A DNA stretch of 24,000 bases from an uncultured Puniceicoccaceae bacterium (GCA_963933835.1 CAWVVV010000002.1:291219-315218); one strand, 5' to 3'; shown: positions 5,610-19,709, counted from the stretch's first letter. Numbers and translations: made by a program. Notes: a model not told the origin generated them from the letters alone.

Positions 5610-6480
5610 GTGCGAATGAAATATATAAACAAAGCAGCTTTGATATTGGGGCTCTGGGTTGCGTCGGGAGCCGGTCTTGATGCGGCCGTCCTAAAGGTCG
5701 CGGTTTCGTTACCGCCACAGGCCGAAATCGTTCGGGCTGTCGGTGGAGAGCGTGTCGAGGTGACTGTTGTGCTGCCGGCAGGGGTAGGGCATGAGTCCTA
5801 TTCGCCGCGGCTTAGAATGCTGCGCCGAGTGGCGATGGTTGATCTCTACTGGGCGACGGGGGGTGGGTTTCGAACGGATCTGGCTTCCTAAGCTTTCTGC
5901 CTCCAATCCAGCCTTAGAAATCTTTGAGTGGACGGCTGTGGCCTGTGAGCATACGCACCATGATCATGCCGAGCATGAGGACCTCCATCGCTGGCTAGAT
6001 ATCGCAGCGGTTGAAGAGGCAGGAGTACTTTTAGCCGAGCAAATGACGCGTCTTGATCCGGCCGGAGCTGCCCTCTATGCGAAAAATTCTCGGGCCTTTT
6101 CGGCTCTTTGTGCTGAGCTCAAGGCTGAGTTAAAAGACCTCTTTGAGCCCCACCAAGGGCGTCGCTTTTATGTCTACCATGGCGCTTTTGGCTATTTTGC
6201 GGAGGCCTTTGGTTTGGAGCAAGTGGCCCTTGAGAGCGAAGGCCGTGAGCCCTCCCTTCGTGGCCTGAGCAATCTCATTACGACGGCGCGTGCCGACGGC
6301 GCTCGCTTCGTTTATATACAGCCACAAATACAGGCTCCATCGGCCCAGCGACTTGCTGAGGCGATCGGGGCTGAACTCATTGTTTTGGATCCTTTAGCGG
6401 AGCAATGGGCGTCCAATCTCCGTTCGATCGCTCAAACCATGGCGGATGGATTCGCCGCTGCCCCGAAATCGAAAGAATGA
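5610..6480 (+). pseudogene. znuA: ZnuA/TroA-family (cluster 9) periplasmic zinc-binding protein, interrupted by a +1 frameshift
   Basis: Two track ORFs (5610-5891 and 5791-6480) together make one binding protein. Signal peptide (M)KYINKAALILGLWVASGAGLDA, then ...LPAGVGHESYSP...VDLYWATG // GVGFERIWLPKL..., a His-rich loop EHTHHDHAEHEDLH, and ...FYVYHGAFGYFAEAFGL... Deleting one G from the G6 run at 5858-5863 yields the continuous LYWATGVGFERIWLPKL. The start is GTG 5610 or ATG 5616. Confidence 0.8.
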
Positions 6481-7235
6481 CCGCCGCGATTGAATTCAAA
6501 GAGGTAGCGTTTGCCTACCGACAACGTCAGGTGCTGGAGGGCCTTTCATTTAGCATCTCCCCGCACGAGACGGTCTGTTTTGTCGGACCCAACGGAGGGG
6601 GGAAATCGACCGCGCTAAAGCTGATGCTCGGCCTCCTCAGTCCGCAAAAAGGCAGTGTCCGTATCCTTGGCAAAGCGCCGCGCCGCGCTCAACGCCGGAT
6701 TGGCTACATGCCTCAAAGTTTAGAATTTGATCCGCTCTTTCCCCTGACAGTCAAAGATGTCGTGCTCGCCGGGCGTTTGAACGGAATGCGCCCCGGGTTT
6801 TACTCCCGCAATGATCGGCTGATCGCTGCTGGCTGCCTTGATGAAATGGAACTCAGCGGAGTCGCTGAGCATCCAATGGCTGAGCTCTCAGGAGGCCAAC
6901 GTCAGCGGGGTTTGATCGCTCGTGCGCTCGCGGTAGAACCAGAGATCCTCTTGCTCGATGAACCGACGGCGATGGTCGATGCCCATCTTGAGACACGGCT
7001 TCTGGAGAAAATTCGGAGCCTCCACCGCCAGTTGACGATTGTATTGGTTTCTCACGACGCCGCGTTCGTCTCGTCCTTAGTCGAACGTGTTTTTTGCGTT
7101 AACACCACCGTCACTGAACATGCCGCCGAGGGTTTGACGGCGGAGACGATGCATGCGCTCTACGGCGACGCGGTCCAAGTCGTGCGCCATGATCACGACT
7201 GCGCTCACGATCACGGGGAGGGCGGCCATGAGTGA
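6477..7235 (+). CDS. znuC: zinc/manganese ABC transporter ATP-binding protein (ZnuC-like), intact
   Basis: Walker A GPNGGGKST, signature LSGGQRQR, Walker B ILLLDEPT, H-loop SHD. The ATG overlaps the znuA stop (ATGA at 6477-6480). The track ORF start at 6405 is an upstream in-frame extension. C-terminal His-rich tail HDHDCAHDHGEGGHE. Confidence 0.9.
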   Translation: MTAAIEFKEVAFAYRQRQVLEGLSFSISPHETVCFVGPNGGGKSTALKLMLGLLSPQKGSVRILGKAPRRAQRRIGYMPQSLEFDPLFPLTVKDVVLAGRLNGMRPGFYSRNDRLIAAGCLDEMELSGVAEHPMAELSGGQRQRGLIARALAVEPEILLLDEPTAMVDAHLETRLLEKIRSLHRQLTIVLVSHDAAFVSSLVERVFCVNTTVTEHAAEGLTAETMHALYGDAVQVVRHDHDCAHDHGEGGHE

Positions 7236-8066
7236 CCTTTTCTCTGGGCCAAATGGCTTTTTATGGCTTGGGCTCTTGGTTGGACTGGGGGCAAGTTTTG
7301 CCTTTGGCAGCCTCGGCTCAATCATCGTCGCGAAGCGGTTGGGTTATCTCGCCGGTGCGGTGGCGCACGCGTCGCTCGGCAGTATCGGCGTCTGTCTTTA
7401 TGCTGAACGAGTATTGGGCTGGGCATGGGTGGATCCACTCTGGTGTGGAGCCCTCCTTTCAATGATTGCTGGTCTACTCATGGAGGTGATCCGGCGCGTC
7501 TCCCCAGAGCGCGAAGATACTTTGCTTGGCGCGCTGTGGGCGGTCGGGATGTCAGTCGGCTTGATCTGCCTTTCGCAGACCCCGGCTACGCAAATCCATC
7601 GAGCTATCTTTTCGGCAACTTGCTCTTGGTTTCGACCGGAGACTTGTGGCGTATCCTGATCCTCGATGCGATTCTCTTGGGACTGCTTGGCGCCTATTAT
7701 CCGATCTGGCAGGCCTCTGCTTTTGACGAGGAGTTTGCCCGCCTGCGCGGAGTGAAAGTGGAACTCTTTTCGGCCCTCTTTATTGCCCTTGTGAGCCTCA
7801 GTGTAGTCCTGCTCTTGTCAGTTGTTGGTCTGCTCTTGGTCGTGGCTTTGATGACGCTGCCAGCCTCGGCTGCTAGCCGGGTGACGAAGTCGCTTGGAGG
7901 TATGATGATCGGCGGTGTTGTGATTTGCGCCATCAGTGTGGTCTCGGGCCTAGCGCTGAGTTATGCCACCGATTGGCCTTCGGGTCCTTCGATCGTCATT
8001 TTTTCTGCCGTGATGTACTTCGCCTTTGCTCAGTTCGGGAGCTGGCGCAGCCGGCGGCAGGCATAA
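7228..8066 (+). pseudogene. znuB: ZnuB-like ABC-3 family permease, interrupted by a -1 frameshift
   Basis: Track ORFs 7153-7659 (real start ATG 7228, MSDLFSGPNGFLWLGLLVGL...) and 7425-8066 carry the N- and C-halves of one permease: ...GALWAVGMSVGLICLSQTP // GYANPSSYLFGNLLLVSTGDLW... One extra base in CCCCGG (7580-7585) would restore LSQTPGYANPSSYLFG. The ATG overlaps the znuC stop by 8 nt. Confidence 0.8.
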
Positions 8067-10527: not shown

Positions 10528-11703
10528 ATGCAGCGTGGAGAGCCAGTTTTCAGTTTAGCCCTTATTGGAGCCGGGCCGGCCGGTCTGTCAGCCGTATTCA
10601 CCGCGCTGCAAAACGGTATCAGCCCGGAGCAAATCTGTCTTTGCGAGCGGGCAGACACACTTCTAGGCGGATGGCGCCACACCTCGGTTCCCATCATCGA
10701 GAGGATGGACCCCTCGGTGACTTGGCAGTCCGCGCAGGGCGGCCTGAACGACCACTCTTGGCTCGAGGCGCTTGATACCGAGTCGTCCGCTGTCTTCGAT
10801 GGTGGCTCCCTGGTTGCACTCCGGAAAACGCTCCTCGAGCAGCTTAATCGGGCAGGCGTGGCGATTCGCACCGGCGCCAAGGCTCTGGAGATTGGTCGCG
10901 ATTATAATAACGACTTTCGTGCGTGGTTTGAGAGTGGGGTGCCCATCACCGCCAAGCGCCTCATCATTGCGACCGGTGGCGGCAAAAATCACGGCTATCG
11001 CTGGGCCGAAGAAAAGTCGCTTTCGATTCAGCCCTTTCTTCCTGCCGGGATCAACCTGCGGCTCAAAGAATCGCGCAAACGAACGTGGGGCTCCCTCCCT
11101 CCGACCAAGGTTCAGGTCGGCCTCGCGTCGATGGACGATCGTGCCGAAGGCTCGATCGAGGGGCCACACCCATGGCTCGGCGGCACCGCTTTGACGCGTC
11201 TCAGCCTATGCGCCCCCGCCGCCCTCGCCGCCGCGAATTATAAAGGCTCGATCCAGATCAACTGGCTTTGCCGCGGGCAAGAAGGCGTTTCGTCCAAAGA
11301 GCTCATGCAGTTCCAGGAGCAGGCCGGCCGCAGGACGCTTGAAGAGTATCCATGGACGGGCTTGGAGAAGACGGTTTGGAAAACCCTCCTCCAGCGCGCC
11401 CGCGCCGAGCCCTCCGCGTTATGGCGTTCGCTCTCCCAGCGCGAGCTCCAGAACCTCGCCTCTCAGTTCACGCGCGCTCAGTTCAAATTCGAGGGCTATC
11501 GCCTCGACCGGATCGGGGGTCTCGCCGCCGGGGGTCTCGGCCTCGAGGAACTCGTCCCCGGCACCTTCGAATCAAAACGCGAAGCGGGCCTCTTCTGGAT
11601 CGGAGAGCTCGTCGATCTCCATGCCTCAGATCCCAACGCCAACCTCTGGCTCGCCCACCTCGCAGGCAAAAACGCCGCCGATGCCGTGGCCCATACTCTC
11701 TAA
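10528..11703 (+). CDS. FAD-dependent oxidoreductase, HI0933/YhiN-like (aminoacetone-oxidase family) flavoprotein, divergent member
   Basis: N-terminal dinucleotide fold LALIGAGPAGLSAVFTAL. Central IIATGGG. C-terminal GGLGLEELVPGTFESKREAGLFWIGELVDLHA..NANLWLAHLAGKNAA resembles the HI0933-family tail (GGV...tmeSk.vpGLYfaGEvlDvdg..GGyNlq.A..sG). Confidence 0.65.
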   Translation: MQRGEPVFSLALIGAGPAGLSAVFTALQNGISPEQICLCERADTLLGGWRHTSVPIIERMDPSVTWQSAQGGLNDHSWLEALDTESSAVFDGGSLVALRKTLLEQLNRAGVAIRTGAKALEIGRDYNNDFRAWFESGVPITAKRLIIATGGGKNHGYRWAEEKSLSIQPFLPAGINLRLKESRKRTWGSLPPTKVQVGLASMDDRAEGSIEGPHPWLGGTALTRLSLCAPAALAAANYKGSIQINWLCRGQEGVSSKELMQFQEQAGRRTLEEYPWTGLEKTVWKTLLQRARAEPSALWRSLSQRELQNLASQFTRAQFKFEGYRLDRIGGLAAGGLGLEELVPGTFESKREAGLFWIGELVDLHASDPNANLWLAHLAGKNAADAVAHTL

Positions 11704-11798
11704 ACACGCAGGACGATTCAACCCAACGCCAAGTGGATACAAGAGAGGCTGTCGCGGGACGACGGCAACAAACTGTATCATCCGACGTATTAGAAAAA

Positions 11799-13339: not shown

Positions 13340-14614
13340 GTGCGGAATGGCATCTTCCGCCGACAAGTTGGCCCTGCCAATTTCACTGCCACGATTGTGA
13401 GACTTCCGAAAAAATTCGTCCCCGAACCCTTTGCCTATCACGAGGAGGTAGAGCTGGAGATCAATGACCTGACAAACCTCGGTGAAGGCGTTGGCCGCAT
13501 CGACGATTGGGTCGTGATGGTGCCCTTTGCGCTCCCCGGTGAGCGTGTGAAAGCTCGCATCTGGCGGAACAAAACGAATTACTCCGACGCCGATCTCGTC
13601 GAAGTCCTGAAGGCCTCGCCGGATCGCGTCGAGCCACCCTGTGCGCTCTTTCAAGAGTGTGGCGGTTGTCAGTATCAGCACCTCAGCTATGAGGCGCAGT
13701 GGCGGTGGAAGACAGCGCAGATCGTTGAGCTCATGCGCCGTTTGGCGGGCTTGGAAATTGAAGTCCAGCCGTGCCGGGGTTCAACTGAGGCCTACGGTTA
13801 TCGCTCTAAGCTGACGCCGCATTACCAGCGGCCCAAAGATGGGAAAATGGGCCCGATTGGCTTTCTTCGCTATTCAAGTCGTTCGATCATCGATGTGGAG
13901 CAATGCCCGATTGCCCGCCCATTGATTAATGAACGGCTGACTGAAGAGCGCGCTCTTATGCACGCGATGCCACCTAAAAAGGGCAAGGGCGGCACACTCC
14001 TCCTGCGCGAAGGCGACGATGGGGTGACGACGGACAACAAAGACCTGCGCACGGGATCGGTGGGCGATAAGCGCTTCCAGTTCATCGCGGGGGAGTTTTT
14101 CCAGAACAATCCCTACGTTTTGCCGTTGCTCGTGGAGTACGCGCTCGACGAGTCGGAGAAGGGTGGAGAGCGCTATTTTGTCGATGCTTACTGCGGTGTC
14201 GGGGTCTTCGGAATTTGTGGAGCGGAGCGCTTTGAGGCGGTGGCCGGCATCGAGGTGAGTCCACCCGCCGTCGCGCTGGCACAAGCCAATGCGGCGCTCA
14301 ATGGGGTAAAAAACGCCGATTTTCTCATCGGTTCGGCTGAGGCGATTTTCGAGGAACTGAAATTCCCTGCCGCTGAAACGTGCGTTTTGATGGATCCACC
14401 CCGCCGTGGCTCAGACGAACTATTTCTTTCGCAGCTCGTTGCCTATGGGCCGAAGCGCGTCGTCTACGTCAGTTGTGGCCCCGATACGCAGGCGCGTGAT
14501 CTGCGCTACCTGATCGATCGCGGCTACCGTGTGGAGCGCATTCAGCCCTTTGACCTCTTCCCGCAAACTCGCCACATCGAGAACGTTGTCACCCTGGTAA
14601 AGGAACCAGCGTAA
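13340..14614 (+). CDS. RNA (uracil-5-)-methyltransferase, RlmD/TrmA (RumA) family with TRAM domain and Fe-S cysteines
   Basis: TRAM-like N-terminus (LEINDLTNLGEGVGRIDDWVVMVPFALPGERVKARIWRNK). Cluster cysteines CALFQECGGCQYQHLSY plus EQCPIA. SAM-binding fold DAYCGVGVFGI, then DPPRRG, and catalytic region YVSCGPDTQARD...FDLFPQTRHIENV. The start is uncertain: GTG 13340 or GTG 13397. Confidence 0.88.
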   Translation: MRNGIFRRQVGPANFTATIVRLPKKFVPEPFAYHEEVELEINDLTNLGEGVGRIDDWVVMVPFALPGERVKARIWRNKTNYSDADLVEVLKASPDRVEPPCALFQECGGCQYQHLSYEAQWRWKTAQIVELMRRLAGLEIEVQPCRGSTEAYGYRSKLTPHYQRPKDGKMGPIGFLRYSSRSIIDVEQCPIARPLINERLTEERALMHAMPPKKGKGGTLLLREGDDGVTTDNKDLRTGSVGDKRFQFIAGEFFQNNPYVLPLLVEYALDESEKGGERYFVDAYCGVGVFGICGAERFEAVAGIEVSPPAVALAQANAALNGVKNADFLIGSAEAIFEELKFPAAETCVLMDPPRRGSDELFLSQLVAYGPKRVVYVSCGPDTQARDLRYLIDRGYRVERIQPFDLFPQTRHIENVVTLVKEPA

Positions 14615-14738
14615 GCACTTTTTATGGGATGAAAGGCGATGAGCGCCCTCTATTCCATTGAAATGTCCGCGTTGAAACGCGGTTGCGTCGCAGCGGTAGC
14701 TACACCAGTATAATCCTAATTTTTTACGTCTAGCCTCT

Positions 14739-15248
14739 ATGCATCAGCTGATAGAAGACAACCTCACCTGCCTCGAGCAAGGCATCCAGTTTCTTGGATG
14801 CTTGCCTGCTGAGCTCTACACGACGCCTAGTACGGTGTGTTTTGGTAGCGCAATCGGAGGTCATTTTCGACATAACATTGATCACTACCAGCAGCTCCTC
14901 GACGGGATCGCGAAGGGCCGCGTGAACTATGATGCTCGCTCGCGAGATATCGAAGTGGAAACGCAGATCTCGGTGGCGATCGGCGCGCTTTGGTCGCTCA
15001 AGGGTGGGCTTTCCGCCCTCACGATTGAAGCCGACGACGGGACCGCGCTCGAAGTCATCATGGATGGCGGGGTTGAGGCGCAATCCACGCGTTCCAGCCT
15101 TTCGCGCGAACTCCAGTTTCTCATCAGCCACACGATTCACCACTACGCCTTGATCGTGACGATCTCGCAGACCCAAGACTTTGCTGAATTTCCGGCTGAT
15201 TTTGGGGTGGCTCCTTCGACGCTGAAGTTTCGCTCCCAATCAGCTTAA
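14739..15248 (+). CDS. DinB-like (DinB_2 superfamily) four-helix-bundle metalloprotein
   Basis: 169 aa with spaced histidine motifs GGHFRHNIDHY (N-terminal) and LISHTIHHYALI (C-terminal), typical of the DinB/YfiT-like His-triad fold. First gene of a tight operon. Confidence 0.6.
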   Translation: MHQLIEDNLTCLEQGIQFLGCLPAELYTTPSTVCFGSAIGGHFRHNIDHYQQLLDGIAKGRVNYDARSRDIEVETQISVAIGALWSLKGGLSALTIEADDGTALEVIMDGGVEAQSTRSSLSRELQFLISHTIHHYALIVTISQTQDFAEFPADFGVAPSTLKFRSQSA

Positions 15249-15251
15249 GCG

Positions 15252-15983
15252 ATGTGCACCGTTTCTTGGTCTATAGAAAAGGGCGGATATTGCCTATTCT
15301 TCAATCGCGATGAGCAGCTTACGCGCGCACCCGCTGAGGCGCCCATAGAGTGGGCCGATGAGGCAGGCATATTCTACGGCCCTAAAGATCCGGTCGGCCG
15401 CGGAACGTGGATTGGGGTTAATCCTCAGGGATGGACCTCCGCTGTCTTGAATTATTACGACGCGACTATCGAAGGGCTTGAGAAGCGCCCAAAGAGTCGA
15501 GGCGAATTGGTCAGGTCATTGGCACCGTTGACGGATAACCGACTTGTCAAAGCGGCGCTTTCGAAGCTGGCGAAGAAGGACTTCGCACCCTTTCACTTTT
15601 TGCGGGTTTCGCCCACCGGCGAGGGGAGCCTTTGGACCTCAAATGGCAAGAAATTGAGTGCGTCTGTCGTCGCGACGGAAAGCCTCCCGCTCACGACGTC
15701 TTCGGTCGATACCGAGCGGGTGACCGAGCGGCGCAAGGCGATCTATTCCTCCCTGAATGCGGGGGGCGCTACGTCGGCCGATTCTCTGAAGATGTTTCAC
15801 CGCTATTTTGATACTTCTGATCCCGCAGCGAGCGTGAGCATGCGCCGCGAAGATGCAGAAACGGTCAGCCTGTCTGAGATTTTCGTGAAGGCGAAGCTGA
15901 TCACGTTCGACTACCACGAACGAGCAGATGAAGGCACGGGGTTTAAGTCGCCGGTTAGCCTGAAGATTCAACGGATCAAATAG
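15252..15983 (+). CDS. NRDE-family protein (DUF833; bacterial homologue of eukaryotic TANGO2)
   Basis: Starts MCTVSW with Cys2, which is Ntn-hydrolase-like, and contains the eponymous FFNRDE motif at residues 16-21. Length 243 aa. It begins 3 nt after the DinB-like stop. Confidence 0.8.
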   Translation: MCTVSWSIEKGGYCLFFNRDEQLTRAPAEAPIEWADEAGIFYGPKDPVGRGTWIGVNPQGWTSAVLNYYDATIEGLEKRPKSRGELVRSLAPLTDNRLVKAALSKLAKKDFAPFHFLRVSPTGEGSLWTSNGKKLSASVVATESLPLTTSSVDTERVTERRKAIYSSLNAGGATSADSLKMFHRYFDTSDPAASVSMRREDAETVSLSEIFVKAKLITFDYHERADEGTGFKSPVSLKIQRIK

Positions 15984-15993
15984 AGCCGCGCGG

Positions 15994-18588
15994 ATGAGAT
16001 CGATTTGTCGCTGGGTTTGGGTCCTGTATTTCCTCCTCCTGGCAGCCTCTTATCTTGGGCAATGGATCGTATCTGACACCTCAGCGCTTCCGTCGGGTAT
16101 GCAAATCTTCGAGGTGCCCGAGCGCTTAGCATCCGGAGAACGAACAGGCCGCTTGATCAAGATGGCCACCTACACGAGTGGGCCCGATGAAGGACCCACG
16201 CTCGTTCTGATCCACGGTAGCCCCGTCGCTTCATCGGCGATGCGAGGCCTCAAGCGTGAATTGGAGAAGGCTCTGCCCGATTGGAGAATCCTTGTCCCGG
16301 ACATGCCGGGGCTGGGCGCATCAACGAGCGAAGTAACAGACTACTCGGTCGCGGCGCATGGCTACGCTGTCCTAGATCTGCTCGATGCGCTCGACGTAGA
16401 AGAGGCTCACCTCTTGGGCTACAGCATGGGCGGAGGCGTCATCCTTGAGGTCTCCCGGATCGCGCCGGATCGCATTGATTCATTGATCATGGCGTCGGCA
16501 ATCGGCGTTCAAGCGTATGAGCTTTTTGGATCCTATGAGCTGAACCATTCGGTGCACTGGATGCAGTGGGCCGCGCTGAAAGGCATCGATCTGCTCGTCC
16601 CGCATTTTGGATTCTTCGAGAAGCAGCCCCTGGATTTAGGCTACGCGCGTAACTTTTTGTATACGGATCAAAGACCCCTGAGCGAGGCACTCAAAAGCTA
16701 CGTCGGCCCGATGCTCATCCATCATGGCCGGGCGGATAACTTGATCCCGATCCAAGCGGCAAAGGAACACGCCCGCCTCGTGCCTCAAGCCGAGTTAGAA
16801 CTCTTCGATGGCGGCCACCTCGATGTGATTTCAAATCCGATGCGCTATGTGGCCCTGTTCGCCGATTTCGTTGCTCGTGCTGAGGCGGGTGAAGCGACCC
16901 TTCGAGCTGAAGCAAGCGCCGAGCGTATCAATGCTGCGGATCAGCCTTTTGTCAGGGACCGCAGTTGGCACTACGAGGGGTTAGCGCTCTTTATCGTCAT
17001 CAGTCTCCTCATGGCTGCGACGATGGTCTCGGAAGACCTGACTTGTATTGGCGGAGGCTTACTCGCGGCCAATGGTTTGATTTCACTCCCAGCAGCCGTT
17101 ATCGCGTGCTTCCTCGGCATCTTTATTGGCGATCTACTGCTCTACACGGCGGGGAGATCTCTGGGTCGGAGCGCGCTTTCTCGGAGACCAATGCGCTGGT
17201 TCGTTCGCCCAGAGGCTGAGAAACGCGCCGAGGCTTGGTTCGCGCGGCGCGGCGCGGTCATCATCTTGGTCTCTCGGGTTTTGCCCGGGACGAGGGCGGC
17301 GACCTATTTTACCGCGGGCGTGCTGAAGGCTCCTCTTGGACGCTTTCTCCTTTTCTTTGGGGTCGCGGCCGCGATCTGGACACCGCTTCTTGTCGGAGGC
17401 GCCAGCTTGATCGGGGAGCAGATGCTCAGAGTCTATGCTTCATACGAGGCCTATGCGCTCCCGCTTCTATTGGCGACGGGCTTATGTCTGTATCTGATCA
17501 TTGGATACGGAATACCTGCCTTGAGTTGGGGCGGGCGAAGACTGCTTTTGGGTAAATGGAGGCGCTGTACACGCTGGGAGTATTGGCCGCTCTGGCTGGT
17601 GAATGCACCGGTGTTTATCTACGTCTTGTGGCTTGTCCTTATTCGCTACCGCAAGCCGATGATCTTCACCCTTTCGAATCCCGGGATGCCGCACGGCGGG
17701 TTCATCGGCGAAAGCAAGGGGGATATCTTAGCGAGTATGCCAACCTTTGCCTCACATGTCATCCCATGGGACCGGTGTCCCGTAGGTGAACCGCTGGATG
17801 AGAGAATGGAACGGCTGCGTGCGATTCAGTCGAAGGGTCAGCCTTGGCCAATCGTGATCAAGCCCGACGAGGGTCAGCGTGGTCTTGGGGTGAGAATTGT
17901 TAAATCGGAAGAGGAGGCAAAGGAGACGCTTGGCCACTTGGATGAATCCCTCGTTCTCCAAGAGTTCGTCGATGGCCCTGAGTATGGAGTATTCTACTAC
18001 AGGTATCCTGAGGCTGAAAAAGGAGTGATCTCTTCGATCACAATCAAGCAATTGACCTCTGTGACGGGTGATGGGGAGCGATCGCTTGAAGATCTTATTT
18101 TGGCCGATGATCGCACTGTAGATCGAGCTACCTATTTCCTTGATCAGATGTCTGATGCACTTCTTGAGGTGCCAAAGTTAGGTGAGCGAGTGCCGTTGGT
18201 TGAGCTTGGGACACACTCTCGGGGTGCGACTTTTTTGGATGGAGCTCACTTATTGACAGACGAGCTGCTTGAGGCAGTTGAAAAGATTTCGCGCTCGTAT
18301 GAGGGATTCTACTACGGGCGCTTCGACTTTAAGGCACCATCAGAAGTTGCCCTTCGCGCAGGGCAGGGCCTAAAAATGATTGAGTTGAATGGTCTGACGT
18401 CAGAGCCGACCCACATTTACGCGCCGGGTGCGTCGCTCTTCACGGGGTGGAAGACACTCATGATCCATTGGCACATCGCGATTCGAATCGGGATGCAGAA
18501 TGAACGGGCAGGGATGAAGCCGTCGGCAGTGAAGGACTTTATTCACTGGTGGTGGCTGAGCTATCACCGCCAGAAAAACAAGGGCTAA
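15994..18588 (+). CDS. 864-aa tri-domain membrane protein: alpha/beta-hydrolase + DedA/VTT (SNARE-associated) membrane domain + ATP-grasp ligase
   Basis: N-terminal TM (WVWVLYFLLLAASYLGQWIV). Hydrolase (about aa 60-300): HG oxyanion LVLIHGSP, nucleophile elbow GYSMGG, later GRADNLIP and GGHLDV. DedA core (about aa 330-520): FLGIFIGDLLLYTAGRSLG and SRVLPGTRAATYFTAGVLKAPLGRFLLF. ATP-grasp (about aa 600-864): PIVIKPDEGQRGLGVRIV, LVLQEFVDGPEYGVFYY, VTGDGERSLEDLI, and GRFDFKAP...MIELNGLTSEPTHIY. It starts 10 nt after the NRDE gene. Confidence 0.8.
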   Translation: MRSICRWVWVLYFLLLAASYLGQWIVSDTSALPSGMQIFEVPERLASGERTGRLIKMATYTSGPDEGPTLVLIHGSPVASSAMRGLKRELEKALPDWRILVPDMPGLGASTSEVTDYSVAAHGYAVLDLLDALDVEEAHLLGYSMGGGVILEVSRIAPDRIDSLIMASAIGVQAYELFGSYELNHSVHWMQWAALKGIDLLVPHFGFFEKQPLDLGYARNFLYTDQRPLSEALKSYVGPMLIHHGRADNLIPIQAAKEHARLVPQAELELFDGGHLDVISNPMRYVALFADFVARAEAGEATLRAEASAERINAADQPFVRDRSWHYEGLALFIVISLLMAATMVSEDLTCIGGGLLAANGLISLPAAVIACFLGIFIGDLLLYTAGRSLGRSALSRRPMRWFVRPEAEKRAEAWFARRGAVIILVSRVLPGTRAATYFTAGVLKAPLGRFLLFFGVAAAIWTPLLVGGASLIGEQMLRVYASYEAYALPLLLATGLCLYLIIGYGIPALSWGGRRLLLGKWRRCTRWEYWPLWLVNAPVFIYVLWLVLIRYRKPMIFTLSNPGMPHGGFIGESKGDILASMPTFASHVIPWDRCPVGEPLDERMERLRAIQSKGQPWPIVIKPDEGQRGLGVRIVKSEEEAKETLGHLDESLVLQEFVDGPEYGVFYYRYPEAEKGVISSITIKQLTSVTGDGERSLEDLILADDRTVDRATYFLDQMSDALLEVPKLGERVPLVELGTHSRGATFLDGAHLLTDELLEAVEKISRSYEGFYYGRFDFKAPSEVALRAGQGLKMIELNGLTSEPTHIYAPGASLFTGWKTLMIHWHIAIRIGMQNERAGMKPSAVKDFIHWWWLSYHRQKNKG

Positions 18589-19709
18589 GGAAAGATGCCA
18601 CGCAGCTGTTTTGCTTTCGCGACGCGCTTGATCCCAAGGGTTTGAGCGGCTTCTCGCCGGGTTAGCCCTAAGCGCTCTTTTTGGTCTTCGACTTCAGCTC
18701 GGGCTTTGTCGAGGAGATCGAAGAGTCTTTGTAGAACCTTCTCGCGGGACCAAAAAAGGCTTTGCAAGCCTTGGACCCATTCAAAGTAAGAGACGATGAC
18801 GCCGCCGCTGTTGCAGAGGACATCGGGGATGATCTCGATGTCGCCGCGCTCTTCGATGATCTTGTCTGCTTCGGTTGTGGTGGGTCCGTTGGCAGCTTCG
18901 GCAAGAAAGCGGCAGTTTAGCTTGGGTGCGTTGTCTGCATCAATCACTCGCTCGAGAGCGGCCGGGACGAGGACGGTACACTTGAGGAGAAGAAGTTCTT
19001 CATTCGTGATCGACTCGGCACCTTCGTAGTCTTTGAGAGACCCATACGTATTGACGTGCCGGAGGGCATCGTGGACATCGATCCCTTTTGGATTATGGAA
19101 TGCGCCTGAGACGTAGCTGATACCGATGACGCGATAACCGTAGTCAACAAAACCAAGTGCGGCATTTGAGCCGACATTTCCGAATCCTTGAATCACGACG
19201 CGCGTTTGGACAGGTCGGATACGGTGGCTTTCAAGGTAGCGTTTCACGATATAGGCGACCCCGCGACCCGTCGCTTCTTCGCGTCCTTCTGAGCCACCAA
19301 TTTCAATCGGTTTACCGGTTACGATCGCTGGCGTTGAGCAGCCGATGATGTTCGAGTAAGTATCCATCATCCACGCCATGGTCTGTGGATTTGTGCCGAG
19401 GTCGGGTGCCATGATGTCGACGTTGGGGCCAACAAAAGGTAAGACCTCCTGCATGTAGCGGCGGGCGACGCGTTCGCTTTCCCTCAGGCTGAGTGCTCGG
19501 GGATCGATCGCAACACCCCCTTTGGCTCCACCGTAGGGGAGACCGACGAGGGCGCATTTCCAACTCATCCACATCGCGAGAGCCCCAACTTCACCAACCG
19601 TTACGGCAGGGTGAAATCGGACGCCGCCCTTGGTTGGCCCGAGGGCGAGATGATGCTGCACGCGATAGGCCTCCAGGCAACTGCTGAGCGTAATGGCTTT
19701 CGAGTACAC
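18585..19709 (-). CDS. gdhA: Glu/Leu/Phe/Val-family glutamate dehydrogenase, apparently missing about 50 N-terminal residues (possible pseudogene)
   Basis: YRVQHHLALGPTKGGVRFHP, catalytic-Lys region GLPYGGAKGGVAIDP, DIMAPDLGTNPQTMAWMMDTYS, VTGKPIEIGGSEGREEATGRGV, NAD fold VIQGFGNVGS, GGVIVSYFEWVQ, and C-terminal KRVAKAKQLRGIFP. Full-length relatives as I recall them have about 65 residues before GYRVQH; only 13 are present here. The reading frame opens at a TGA at 19725-19727, and the first start is GTG 19709. Confidence 0.8.
   Translation of the reverse strand: MYSKAITLSSCLEAYRVQHHLALGPTKGGVRFHPAVTVGEVGALAMWMSWKCALVGLPYGGAKGGVAIDPRALSLRESERVARRYMQEVLPFVGPNVDIMAPDLGTNPQTMAWMMDTYSNIIGCSTPAIVTGKPIEIGGSEGREEATGRGVAYIVKRYLESHRIRPVQTRVVIQGFGNVGSNAALGFVDYGYRVIGISYVSGAFHNPKGIDVHDALRHVNTYGSLKDYEGAESITNEELLLLKCTVLVPAALERVIDADNAPKLNCRFLAEAANGPTTTEADKIIEERGDIEIIPDVLCNSGGVIVSYFEWVQGLQSLFWSREKVLQRLFDLLDKARAEVEDQKERLGLTRREAAQTLGIKRVAKAKQLRGIFP

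Follow-up and report, generated by a model that had tools for sequence, protein, structure and literature searches.

The stretch of DNA analyzed here (the window) comprises 24,000 nucleotides from an uncultured Puniceicoccaceae bacterium (GCA_963933835.1, CAWVVV010000002.1:291219-315218), and it carries a local operon of three genes, the last of which encodes an 864-residue protein with an α/β-hydrolase domain, a DedA/VTT membrane core and a divergent ATP-grasp ligase domain in a single polypeptide (Table 1). The genes were tightly spaced, with 3 nucleotides between the stop codon of the DinB-like gene and the TANGO2-like gene, and 10 nucleotides between the TANGO2-like stop codon and the ATG start codon of the three-domain gene. 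The three modules had been proposed in a sequence-only reading of the window from a set of short motifs, and each of the quoted motifs was located in the translation: GYSMGG at residues 142-147, SRVLPGTRAATYFTAG at residues 427-442, VIKPDEGQRGLGV at residues 621-633, VTGDGERSLEDLI at residues 690-702, RFDFKAP at residues 776-782 and ELNG at residues 797-800. The domains themselves were borne out by Pfam for the hydrolase and the VTT domain, by a family profile searched against the Protein Data Bank (PDB) and by Foldseek for the ATP-grasp domain, and by the invariant residues of all three.

Table 1. Features of the operon and of the three-domain protein, with positions counted from the first letter of the window.
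Feature	Position in window (nt)	Strand	Residues	Basis or remark
DinB-fold-like 169-residue protein ('U169')	14739..15248	+		First gene of the local operon
TANGO2/NRDE-family 243-residue protein	15252..15983	+		Second gene of the local operon
864-residue three-domain protein	15994..18588	+	1-864	Third and last gene of the local operon; stop codon included
N-terminal signal-anchor helix	15997..16068	+	2-25	AlphaFold model, conservation, charge
α/β-hydrolase domain	16099..16884	+	36-297	Pfam, invariant triad, model
DedA/VTT membrane core	16969..17520	+	326-509	Pfam, model, YqjA alignment
Re-entrant helix 1			330-359 (330-345 / 347-359)	Model; Glu347 and Asp348 at the tip
DedA transmembrane helix			365-385 (model helix 365-395)	Model
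Lys/Arg-rich stretch, predicted cytoplasmic			386-417	Basic helices 400-426 in the model
Re-entrant helix 2			~418-443 (...426 / 434-443)	Model; Arg428 and Arg434 at the tip
DedA transmembrane helices			448-470 and 488-509 (model helices 448-484 and 488-509)	Model
Ligase membrane anchor	17527..17646	+	512-526 and 533-551	Model, charge, stand-alone relatives
ATP-grasp ligase domain	17662..18585	+	557-864	Profile against PDB, model, Foldseek

A homologue search covering 5.8 billion proteins revealed more than 300 full-length relatives of 820-920 residues (mostly 850-900) with the same architecture and E-values down to 0, which were annotated merely as "alpha/beta fold hydrolase" or "DedA/pimeloyl-ACP methyl ester carboxylesterase". 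The spread of the fusion was examined in a scan of one genome per species, which found carriers in at least 589 species genomes from eight or more diderm phyla. These included Verrucomicrobiota, Acidobacteriota, Gemmatimonadota, Planctomycetota, Rhodothermales/Balneolales, Calditrichota, KSB1 and Desulfobacterota, and the closest named relatives of the window belonged to the Opitutales (Verrucomicrobiota). Nearly all carriers were metagenome-assembled genomes (MAGs); one cultured species, Fodinibius salsisoli, was met. In an alignment of 30 diverse members, the mean column identity was 51% and all catalytic residues were invariant. Judged by these homologues, carriers and invariant residues, the 864-residue protein is the product of a real gene and not of a chance open reading frame (ORF). 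A public JGI/Tara gene call for the identical protein (P0001) gave only 829 residues, because it began at Met36 (position 16099), 35 codons downstream, and left out the N-terminal membrane helix. This start was rejected and the ATG at 15994 was favored, since the N-terminal hydrophobic helix was conserved across phyla and a gene call in the same 90% identity cluster (P0388) was 864 residues long.

The hydrolase domain was recognized by two Pfam models over residues ~68-290, Abhydrolase_1 (PF00561, 90.7 bits against a curated cut-off of 25.8) and Abhydrolase_6 (PF12697, 52.9 bits against 26.3). The nucleophile elbow G-x-S-x-G was present as GYSMGG, and the predicted catalytic triad consisted of Ser144 (16423-16425), Asp248 (16735-16737) and His275 (16816-16818), which were invariant in the 30 members and followed strands 138-143, 240-245 and 267-271 of the AlphaFold model in the canonical order. 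The best sequence matches in the PDB were meta-cleavage-product hydrolases and esterases (E = 1e-16), and a cap motif, YARNFxDxDQRPL at residues 217-229, was specific to the family. By profile match and triad, the membership of this domain in the α/β-hydrolase fold is genuine.

The membrane core matched VTT_dom (PF09335) with 61.8 bits against a curated cut-off of 33.9 over residues 355-468. Its best NCBIfam match was the UptA model NF052604 (60.8 bits, E = 1.7e-16), far under the equivalog cut-off of 250. In the secondary structure of the AlphaFold model, two helix-break-helix re-entrant elements and three transmembrane helices made up the DedA core. Alignment with YqjA of E. coli, whose Ala20 corresponded to about residue 331, placed Asp348, Arg428 and Arg434 at the positions of Asp51, Arg130 and Arg136, respectively; all three were invariant, as were Glu347 and Asp380. 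The segment around Glu39 of YqjA (ENGLLP) was deleted, and Glu347, which adjoins Asp348, may substitute for this residue. By profile and alignment, the protein is a genuine DedA/VTT protein with most, not all, of the hallmarks of COG0586, the group of E. coli YqjA and YghB and of B. subtilis UptA. It has the VTT domain, the two re-entrant and three transmembrane helices and the equivalents of Asp51, Arg130 and Arg136 in common with these proteins, whereas the Glu39 segment is missing, an enzyme is fused on both sides and the UptA score is low. The two arginines of DedA proteins have been proposed to bind phosphate and the COG0586 proteins to be undecaprenyl phosphate flippases, and the partners in the DedA fusions surveyed in 2023 were only rhodanese and PAP2 (PMC10127716).

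The ATP-grasp domain stayed under the Pfam cut-offs (ATP-grasp_3, 19.9 bits against 23.2; RimK, 19.4 bits against 21; E about 8e-4). When the family alignment of the C-terminal 308 residues was used as a profile against PDB sequences, its best matches were the two cyanophycin synthetases (type 2, 7ta5, E = 2.7e-7; type 1, E = 7e-7), followed by GshAB through its ATP-grasp half (E = 1.5e-6) and by D-Ala-D-Ala ligase (Ddl). A separate AlphaFold model of residues 557-864, with a predicted local distance difference test (pLDDT) score of 88 and a predicted template modeling (pTM) score of 0.85, gave cyanophycin synthetase 1 (7wae, E = 1e-11) as the top Foldseek match, followed by GshAB, CphA2 and many Ddl structures; the matches to CphA1, GshAB and Ddl had E-values of 1e-11 to 1e-8 and a probability of 1.00. 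Both searches agreed with the sequence-only reading, in which the segment VTGDG...LEDLI had been placed near the cyanophycin-synthetase/RimK group. Residues 557-864 are a divergent ATP-grasp domain that fell short of the curated cut-offs of all Pfam ATP-grasp models it matched, and Pfam-based genome mining for such ligases consequently misses the family. Six residues were invariant among the 30 members (Lys623, Gln656, Arg776, Asp778, Glu797 and Asn799). Lys623 is the putative ATP-binding lysine, and Arg776, Asp778, Glu797 and Asn799 form the putative Mg/phosphate site; ELNG aligned with EINA of cyanophycin synthetase 2 in the comparison of the family profile with the PDB. The best profile and structural matches, the G domain of CphA1 and CphA2 and GshAB, all ligate an amino acid to the C-terminal carboxylate of a peptide and have the VTGDG...L.ELI insert as well as the E-x-N Mg site in common with the protein. 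In contrast, the identity to them was only 15-19%, an anchor takes the place of their N-terminal ATP-grasp subdomain, and a lipid is the presumed substrate. Nor is the protein a cyanophycin synthetase, as Pfam and NCBIfam found only the G-like domain and neither the Mur-ligase-like M domain nor the primer-binding N domain.

The canonical N-terminal Rossmann-like subdomain of ATP-grasp enzymes is apparently absent, since the model had only a single strand (592-595) in the ~45 residues that connect the membrane helix to the central ATP-grasp subdomain, and positions 20-49 of the family profile already aligned with residues 120-125 of Ddl. In Ddl-type enzymes, the N-terminal subdomain helps to bind the carboxylate substrate. 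Here its place is taken by the membrane anchor, which in the model is a basic amphipathic helix at residues 512-526 (WGGRRLLLGKWRRCTRWE) followed by a Trp/Pro-rich hydrophobic helix at residues 533-551, and by an invariant entry motif, NPxxxxxGxxxExK, at residues 562-575 (N562-P563...G569...E573-x-K575). This replacement suggests that the substrate of the ligase comes from the membrane. The C-terminal helix at residues 846-863 (18529-18582; FIHWWWLSYHRQKNKG) was basic and unusually Trp-rich and resembles another interfacial membrane-binding element; its conservation was limited to the closest relatives.

The topology was derived from the charge bias, the helix map of the model and the alignment with YqjA. 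The N-terminal helix at residues 2-25 was preceded by Lys/Arg residues and was conserved across phyla. The mean net charge of each segment over the 30 aligned sequences was +3.0 before this helix and -0.9 after it, +4.2 in segment 386-417, -0.5 in segment 471-487, +6.0 in segment 510-532 and +1.1 in segment 552-566. In the cysteine-accessibility map of YqjA, residues A20, S52 and V180 are periplasmic and residues V99, L117 and G217 are cytoplasmic (bioRxiv 10.1101/2021.10.18.464800). Taken together, these data indicate that the N-terminus is most likely cytoplasmic and the hydrolase periplasmic, as the sequence-only reading had suspected from the position of the hydrolase behind an N-terminal helix, with the DedA core oriented as in YqjA and segment 510-532 in the cytoplasm. 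The ATP-grasp domain is most likely cytoplasmic as well, provided that helix 533-551 is monotopic or re-entrant in the cytoplasmic leaflet, which the use of ATP requires. This inferred placement of the helix was supported by the stand-alone ATP-grasp relatives, in which a tail of 17-30 residues with 5-6 Lys/Arg leads into the same hydrophobic helix, followed by an RYRG-type motif and then the ATP-grasp domain. A true transmembrane span was judged unlikely, because the ATP-dependent enzyme would then be periplasmic, or else three strongly basic segments would be inverted. The hydrolase and the ligase thus lie most likely on opposite sides of the membrane, with a DedA-like re-entrant core present in the same chain.

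The conservation of residues in all three modules implies that all three are under selection as active units, and all three look catalytically intact from their aligned residues. A mutational map of the protein would accordingly target ligation at Lys623, Asp778 and Glu797, transport at Arg428 and Arg434 and hydrolysis at Ser144. The modules were not always found together. A search of the full library with the profile of the ATP-grasp domain gave 1537 clusters (50% identity) at E <= 1e-30, and two shorter architectures were found: DedA fused to ATP-grasp (~520-620 residues) and the anchor helix with ATP-grasp alone (~327-390 residues). The anchor helix accompanied the ATP-grasp domain in every relative whose sequence was inspected, whereas the hydrolase was dispensable among the ATP-grasp relatives. 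Since the shorter forms occurred in the same gene clusters, next to OlsB- and OlsA-type genes, the membrane-anchored ATP-grasp domain is the constant core of a module of aminolipid gene clusters, with DedA as a frequent fusion partner and the hydrolase as an optional one.

The gene neighborhoods pointed to lipid synthesis. ORFs of 80 related loci (L001-L080) were clustered and searched again with hidden Markov models (HMMs), and the neighbors were counted in the 57 loci with at least 4.5 kb upstream. An OlsB-like gene (~270 residues) was found in 41 of the 57 loci, an OlsA-like gene (~265 residues) in 33, a DinB-like gene in 42 and a TANGO2-like gene in 30. The usual order on one strand was OlsB-like, OlsA-like, DinB-like, TANGO2 and then the three-domain gene as the last. 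The OlsB-like proteins matched Pfam Acetyltransf_5 (E = 1.4e-26), with ornithine N-alpha-acyltransferase OlsB as the best NCBIfam model (E = 1e-34 to 1e-51), and the OlsA-like proteins were PlsC-type acyltransferases, with lyso-ornithine-lipid O-acyltransferase OlsA as the best model (E = 1e-37 to 1e-40); some loci encoded a ~620-residue OlsF-like fusion of the two types. The scores against both NCBIfam models were below the equivalog cut-offs, so that the models do not fix the amino-acid specificity. By a rough estimate, fewer than 1% of random genes would have an OlsB gene within 8 kb. Two additional ORF clusters, which ran antisense to the DinB-like and TANGO2 genes and overlapped them in GC-rich loci, were discarded as artefacts of longest-ORF calling. 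The ABC ATPase at 6405-7235 of the window was not considered to be linked to the family, because generic ABC_tran matches occurred in few loci and at varying distance and strand.

Genes of the shorter architectures had the same company. The order was DinB-like, ATP-grasp, OlsB and OlsA in L081, and DinB_2, TANGO2, DedA-ATP-grasp, OlsB and OlsA with overlapping stops and starts in L089. L087 and L088 contained a DinB-like gene, a 92-residue ORF, DedA-ATP-grasp and TANGO2, followed by an OlsB/FeeM-type gene on the opposite strand, and L091 contained DinB, ATP-grasp and an OlsF-like gene. The order in L092 and L093 was a 188-residue ORF, TANGO2, ATP-grasp, OlsB and OlsA. At positions 10811-11713 of these last two loci, a few genes downstream, an Asp_Arg_Hydrox gene (PF05118) was found, whose family includes LpxO and the ornithine-lipid hydroxylase OlsC, and its presence reinforces the ornithine-lipid character of the cluster.

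Of the two partners of the three-domain gene in the window, the 169-residue protein gave a weak match to Pfam DinB_2 (E = 0.011), and the profile of its family matched the DinB-like protein 3dka over the full length (E = 0.018); Arg44, His45, His131, His134 and His135 were invariant in the family. These weak matches suggest a remote relative of the DinB fold. Similar ORFs in L081 (164 residues) and L087 (199 residues) were identified by the motifs RH..DYD.R.R...RE.QF..SHTVHHYALI..DFG.APSTL, and the corresponding genes of L089 and L091 gave weak Pfam DinB matches, so that a DinB-like gene also adjoins the shorter ATP-grasp architectures. The 243-residue protein matched Pfam TANGO2 (E = 2.8e-16), and its family profile matched the human TANGO2 structures 9bwa and 8sv7 (E = 6e-19). 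It was Ntn-hydrolase-like, with invariant Cys2, Asn18, Arg19, Asp20 and Glu21 (NRDE), and homologues were also present in L087, L089 and L092. Bacterial TANGO2/NRDE homologues were thus found within OlsB/OlsA aminolipid operons across many phyla. The biochemical role of TANGO2, a human disease protein, is debated, and this conserved lipid setting in bacteria independently hints at an acyl-lipid function. The NRDE pocket of human TANGO2 binds the acyl chain of acyl-CoA (PMC11867700), which by analogy fits a lipid-handling role of the bacterial partner without defining it. The TANGO2-like partner may handle acyl chains or act as an opposing amidase.

With these neighbors, the three-domain protein very probably takes part in an OlsBA-type pathway, a proposal that rests on strong comparative genomics. 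The genomic context shifted the likely substrate from phosphatidylglycerol or polyprenyl phosphate to acyloxyacyl aminolipids of the OlsB/OlsA type; of the two kinds of substrate named in the sequence-only reading, a lipid head group still fits, in the form of an ornithine-lipid-like aminolipid, and the context does not point to a phospholipid or to a carrier-lipid-linked substrate. We give roughly even chances to the complete scheme, in which the protein would be the terminal enzyme of an ornithine-lipid-type aminolipid pathway and its three fused modules would make, flip and remodel the lipid. In the inner leaflet, the OlsB and OlsA homologues would assemble an N-(3-acyloxyacyl) amino acid. 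The ATP-grasp domain on the cytoplasmic leaflet would then phosphorylate a carboxylate to an acyl phosphate, most likely the free α-carboxylate of the head group, since the cyanophycin-synthetase G domain, GshAB and Ddl act on the C-terminal carboxylates of peptides. Coupling of the acyl phosphate to an amine, be it an amino acid, taurine or ammonia, would extend or cap the head group. The DedA module would move the product to the periplasmic leaflet, with Arg428 and Arg434 binding the remaining anionic group and the acidic tip coupling the movement to protons, as proposed for COG0586 proteins (PMC10127716). Finally, the periplasmic hydrolase, an optional add-on, would deacylate, trim or transfer the lipid on the outer side. 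The make-flip-trim module of the sequence-only reading is therefore partly supported, as trimming is not a core step when the hydrolase is optional.

The hydrolase domain could also be a transferase, because OlsI of the OlsH/OlsI pathway, an α/β-hydrolase-fold protein, acts as an O-acyltransferase in planctomycete ornithine-lipid synthesis (PMC12493201). OlsI demonstrates that this fold can serve as an acyltransferase in aminolipid synthesis. It differs, by its description, in being a separate protein that was assayed in cell-free extracts and is presumably cytoplasmic, whereas the domain studied here is predicted to be periplasmic, and most loci of the family already encode an OlsA-type O-acyltransferase.

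A literature search on the domain combinations and aminolipid terms found no description of this architecture or of the proposed function, in line with the claim of the sequence-only reading that no characterized protein has it. Aminolipids such as ornithine lipids are encoded by an estimated half, roughly, of sequenced bacterial species (PMC12971839). Two reactions of the ATP-grasp type, in which an amine is ligated to the head-group carboxyl of an aminolipid with required or presumed use of ATP, lack a gene in recent studies. For the ATP-dependent transfer of taurine to the carboxyl group of ornithine lipid, which yields cerilipin, the gene was not identified according to a 2026 review (PMC12971839), and for the ligation of serine in Ser-Gly lipids, a reaction of the kind that gives dipeptide or tripeptide head groups, it was not identified in a 2025 study of B. 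dorei even after Pfam-based ligase searches (PMC12746155). The carriers found here, however, belong to phyla other than those of Gluconobacter or Bacteroides. The word "flippase" appears nowhere in the main text of the same review, and "transport" only in the title of a reference (PMC12971839), so that the crossing of the inner membrane by aminolipids is apparently an open question. The family provides a concrete, clonable candidate for both head-group ligation and aminolipid flipping. Tentatively, it could represent a class of ATP-dependent aminolipid head-group ligases (for head groups of the cerilipin type or peptides) fused to the first dedicated aminolipid flippase and a remodeling hydrolase. 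In this tentative form of the proposal, the di-arginine site of DedA would bind a carboxylate lipid and not polyprenyl phosphate, and the machine would set the envelope surface charge in many uncultured diderm phyla. If true, the function would widen the choice of DedA substrates past the current debate between polyprenyl phosphate and phospholipid, it would bring ATP-grasp chemistry directly to a membrane lipid, and it would strengthen the evidence that the disease-linked TANGO2 family has a lipid-related role by giving TANGO2/NRDE a defined bacterial lipid-metabolic context.

Several observations weigh against an aminolipid-modifying and -flipping machine. The HMM search found no OlsB, OlsA or OlsF homologue in the 24-kb window, where only the DinB-like and TANGO2-like partners are present, and no Ols gene was nearby in the 4 of the 57 loci that had none of the four partners or in the lineage of L083-L085. 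The acidic tip with two arginines is the signature of COG0586, a group proposed to flip undecaprenyl phosphate (PMC10127716), and an aminolipid would be a new specificity. The nearest relatives of the hydrolase domain are generic. Helix 533-551, with 19 residues, is long enough to span the membrane, in which case the ligase would face the periplasm. Lastly, the full-length AlphaFold model (pLDDT 87) had only moderate inter-domain confidence (pTM 0.56), which makes the packing of its domains uncertain.

The DedA signature would suit an MprF-like module that acts on a glycerophospholipid or on an undecaprenyl-phosphate-linked intermediate by tRNA-independent aminoacylation, flips the product by DedA and lets the hydrolase remove the modification outside. 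The equivalents of Asp51, Arg130 and Arg136, two of them arginines of the proposed phosphate-binding kind (PMC10127716), the UptA model as the best NCBIfam match (E = 1.7e-16) and a topology fit for making inside and trimming outside all agree with such a module. It is nevertheless unlikely, because genes for phospholipids, peptidoglycan, teichoic acids or glycan assembly did not recur beside the family in the neighborhood analysis of the related loci, where the recurrent neighbors were OlsB, OlsA and OlsF homologues, and because the 60.8 bits of the UptA match stand against an equivalog cut-off of 250. The synthase and flippase domains of MprF were not among the Pfam or NCBIfam matches of the protein. 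The likeness to MprF drawn in the sequence-only reading is thus one of function and not of family. In MprF, too, a cytoplasmic head-group enzyme and an integral-membrane flippase share one polypeptide, the modification can be undone by a periplasmic hydrolase, whether separate or fused, and an altered membrane surface charge is the likely outcome. MprF, however, uses aminoacyl-tRNA, a GNAT-like synthase and a flippase fold of its own on phosphatidylglycerol, whereas the protein studied here has ATP-grasp with acyl-phosphate chemistry, DedA/VTT and a context of aminolipids; it would be a bifunctional lipid-modifying enzyme and flippase assembled from different parts for a different lipid class.

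Ligation could also precede acylation. The ATP-grasp domain would then make a soluble dipeptide or modified amino acid for N-acylation by OlsB, the anchor would serve only for co-localization, and DedA would export the lipid. Ddl and GshAB, which are among the nearest relatives of the ligase, join small soluble substrates, and the OlsB homologues, which scored well below the ornithine-specific equivalog cut-offs, could take an unusual amino acid. This order of events is equally improbable as the MprF-like module, since a soluble dipeptide synthase would need neither the anchor nor the entry motif nor the fusion to a transporter. The ligase has the membrane helix and the invariant entry motif where the N-terminal subdomain would be, it kept the anchor even in its minimal stand-alone forms, and it was repeatedly fused to the lipid transporter.

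The TANGO2-like partner raises the further possibility, quite unlikely, of carboxyl amidation, in which the ATP-grasp domain activates the lipid carboxylate and the partner, as a Cys-Ntn glutaminase, supplies ammonia to give a cationic ornithine-lipid amide, as MurT/GatD do on lipid II. The α-β-β-α fold is that of Ntn hydrolases, including class II amidotransferases. The title of the publication on the human TANGO2 crystal structure names this fold (PMC12359130), and the bacterial partner, which falls into the family of the human structures, has the invariant N-terminal Cys2 and NRDE and shared an operon with the ligase in roughly half of the loci. On the other hand, TANGO2 was absent from almost half of the 57 loci, the report of acyl-chain binding by the NRDE pocket of human TANGO2 mentions no glutaminase activity (PMC11867700), and an amidated ornithine lipid was not found in the aminolipid reviews consulted. 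A role in turnover or salvage, in which the hydrolase degrades aminolipids or exogenous lipids, DedA returns the fragments and the ATP-grasp domain re-ligates them, or a mere fusion of unrelated housekeeping domains, is very improbable, because the anchored ATP-grasp domain is the constant core with a dispensable hydrolase and is tightly linked in operons to biosynthetic acyltransferases across phyla, even though the hydrolase relatives include general esterases and depolymerases and DedA proteins are regarded as bidirectional scramblase-like carriers (PMC10127716).

Other proteins were found beside the family in subsets of the loci. A protein of ~245 residues with a signal-peptide-like N-terminus, an HExxH motif and a weak Peptidase_M48 match (E = 0.0018) was encoded directly downstream on the same strand in L024, L031, L033, L034, L042, L058 and L066, mostly in loci labeled Acidobacteriota or Heliomicrobium/Heliobacteriaceae, and is possibly another accessory in the periplasm. 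Upstream of the OlsB-like gene in L015, L020, L032, L039, L057, L074, L075 and L077, a fusion of a ferric-reductase-like transmembrane domain and a Rieske [2Fe-2S] domain (~349 residues) headed an extended cluster and was often followed by an unannotated membrane-anchored protein of ~260-277 residues; these two may form a lipid-oxidizing pair. Several MAGs (L018, L021, L023, L024, L034, L036 and L042) were labeled Heliobacteriaceae/Heliomicrobium (Firmicutes), and these labels look doubtful, as the loci resembled those of Acidobacteriota members.

Within the window, a Glu/Leu/Phe/Val dehydrogenase gene (18585-19709, reverse strand) was convergent with the three-domain gene and overlapped its stop codon by 4 nucleotides, with no convincing terminator between the two genes. 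A scan for promoters and terminators over positions 14400-19000 gave counts near those of shuffled sequence and was hence uninformative. Farther upstream, a ZnuA-like ORF (5791-6480) looked N-terminally short as called, its profile match starting only at position 55. A ZnuB-like ABC-3 permease was split over two overlapping ORFs in different frames (7153-7659 and 7425-8066, forward strand), which covered positions 7-109 and 112-254 of the Pfam ABC-3 model, respectively; the frameshift reflects either a pseudogene or an assembly error. The sole RNA-family match in the window was a tRNA-Gln with the anticodon TTG at 676-749 on the forward strand.

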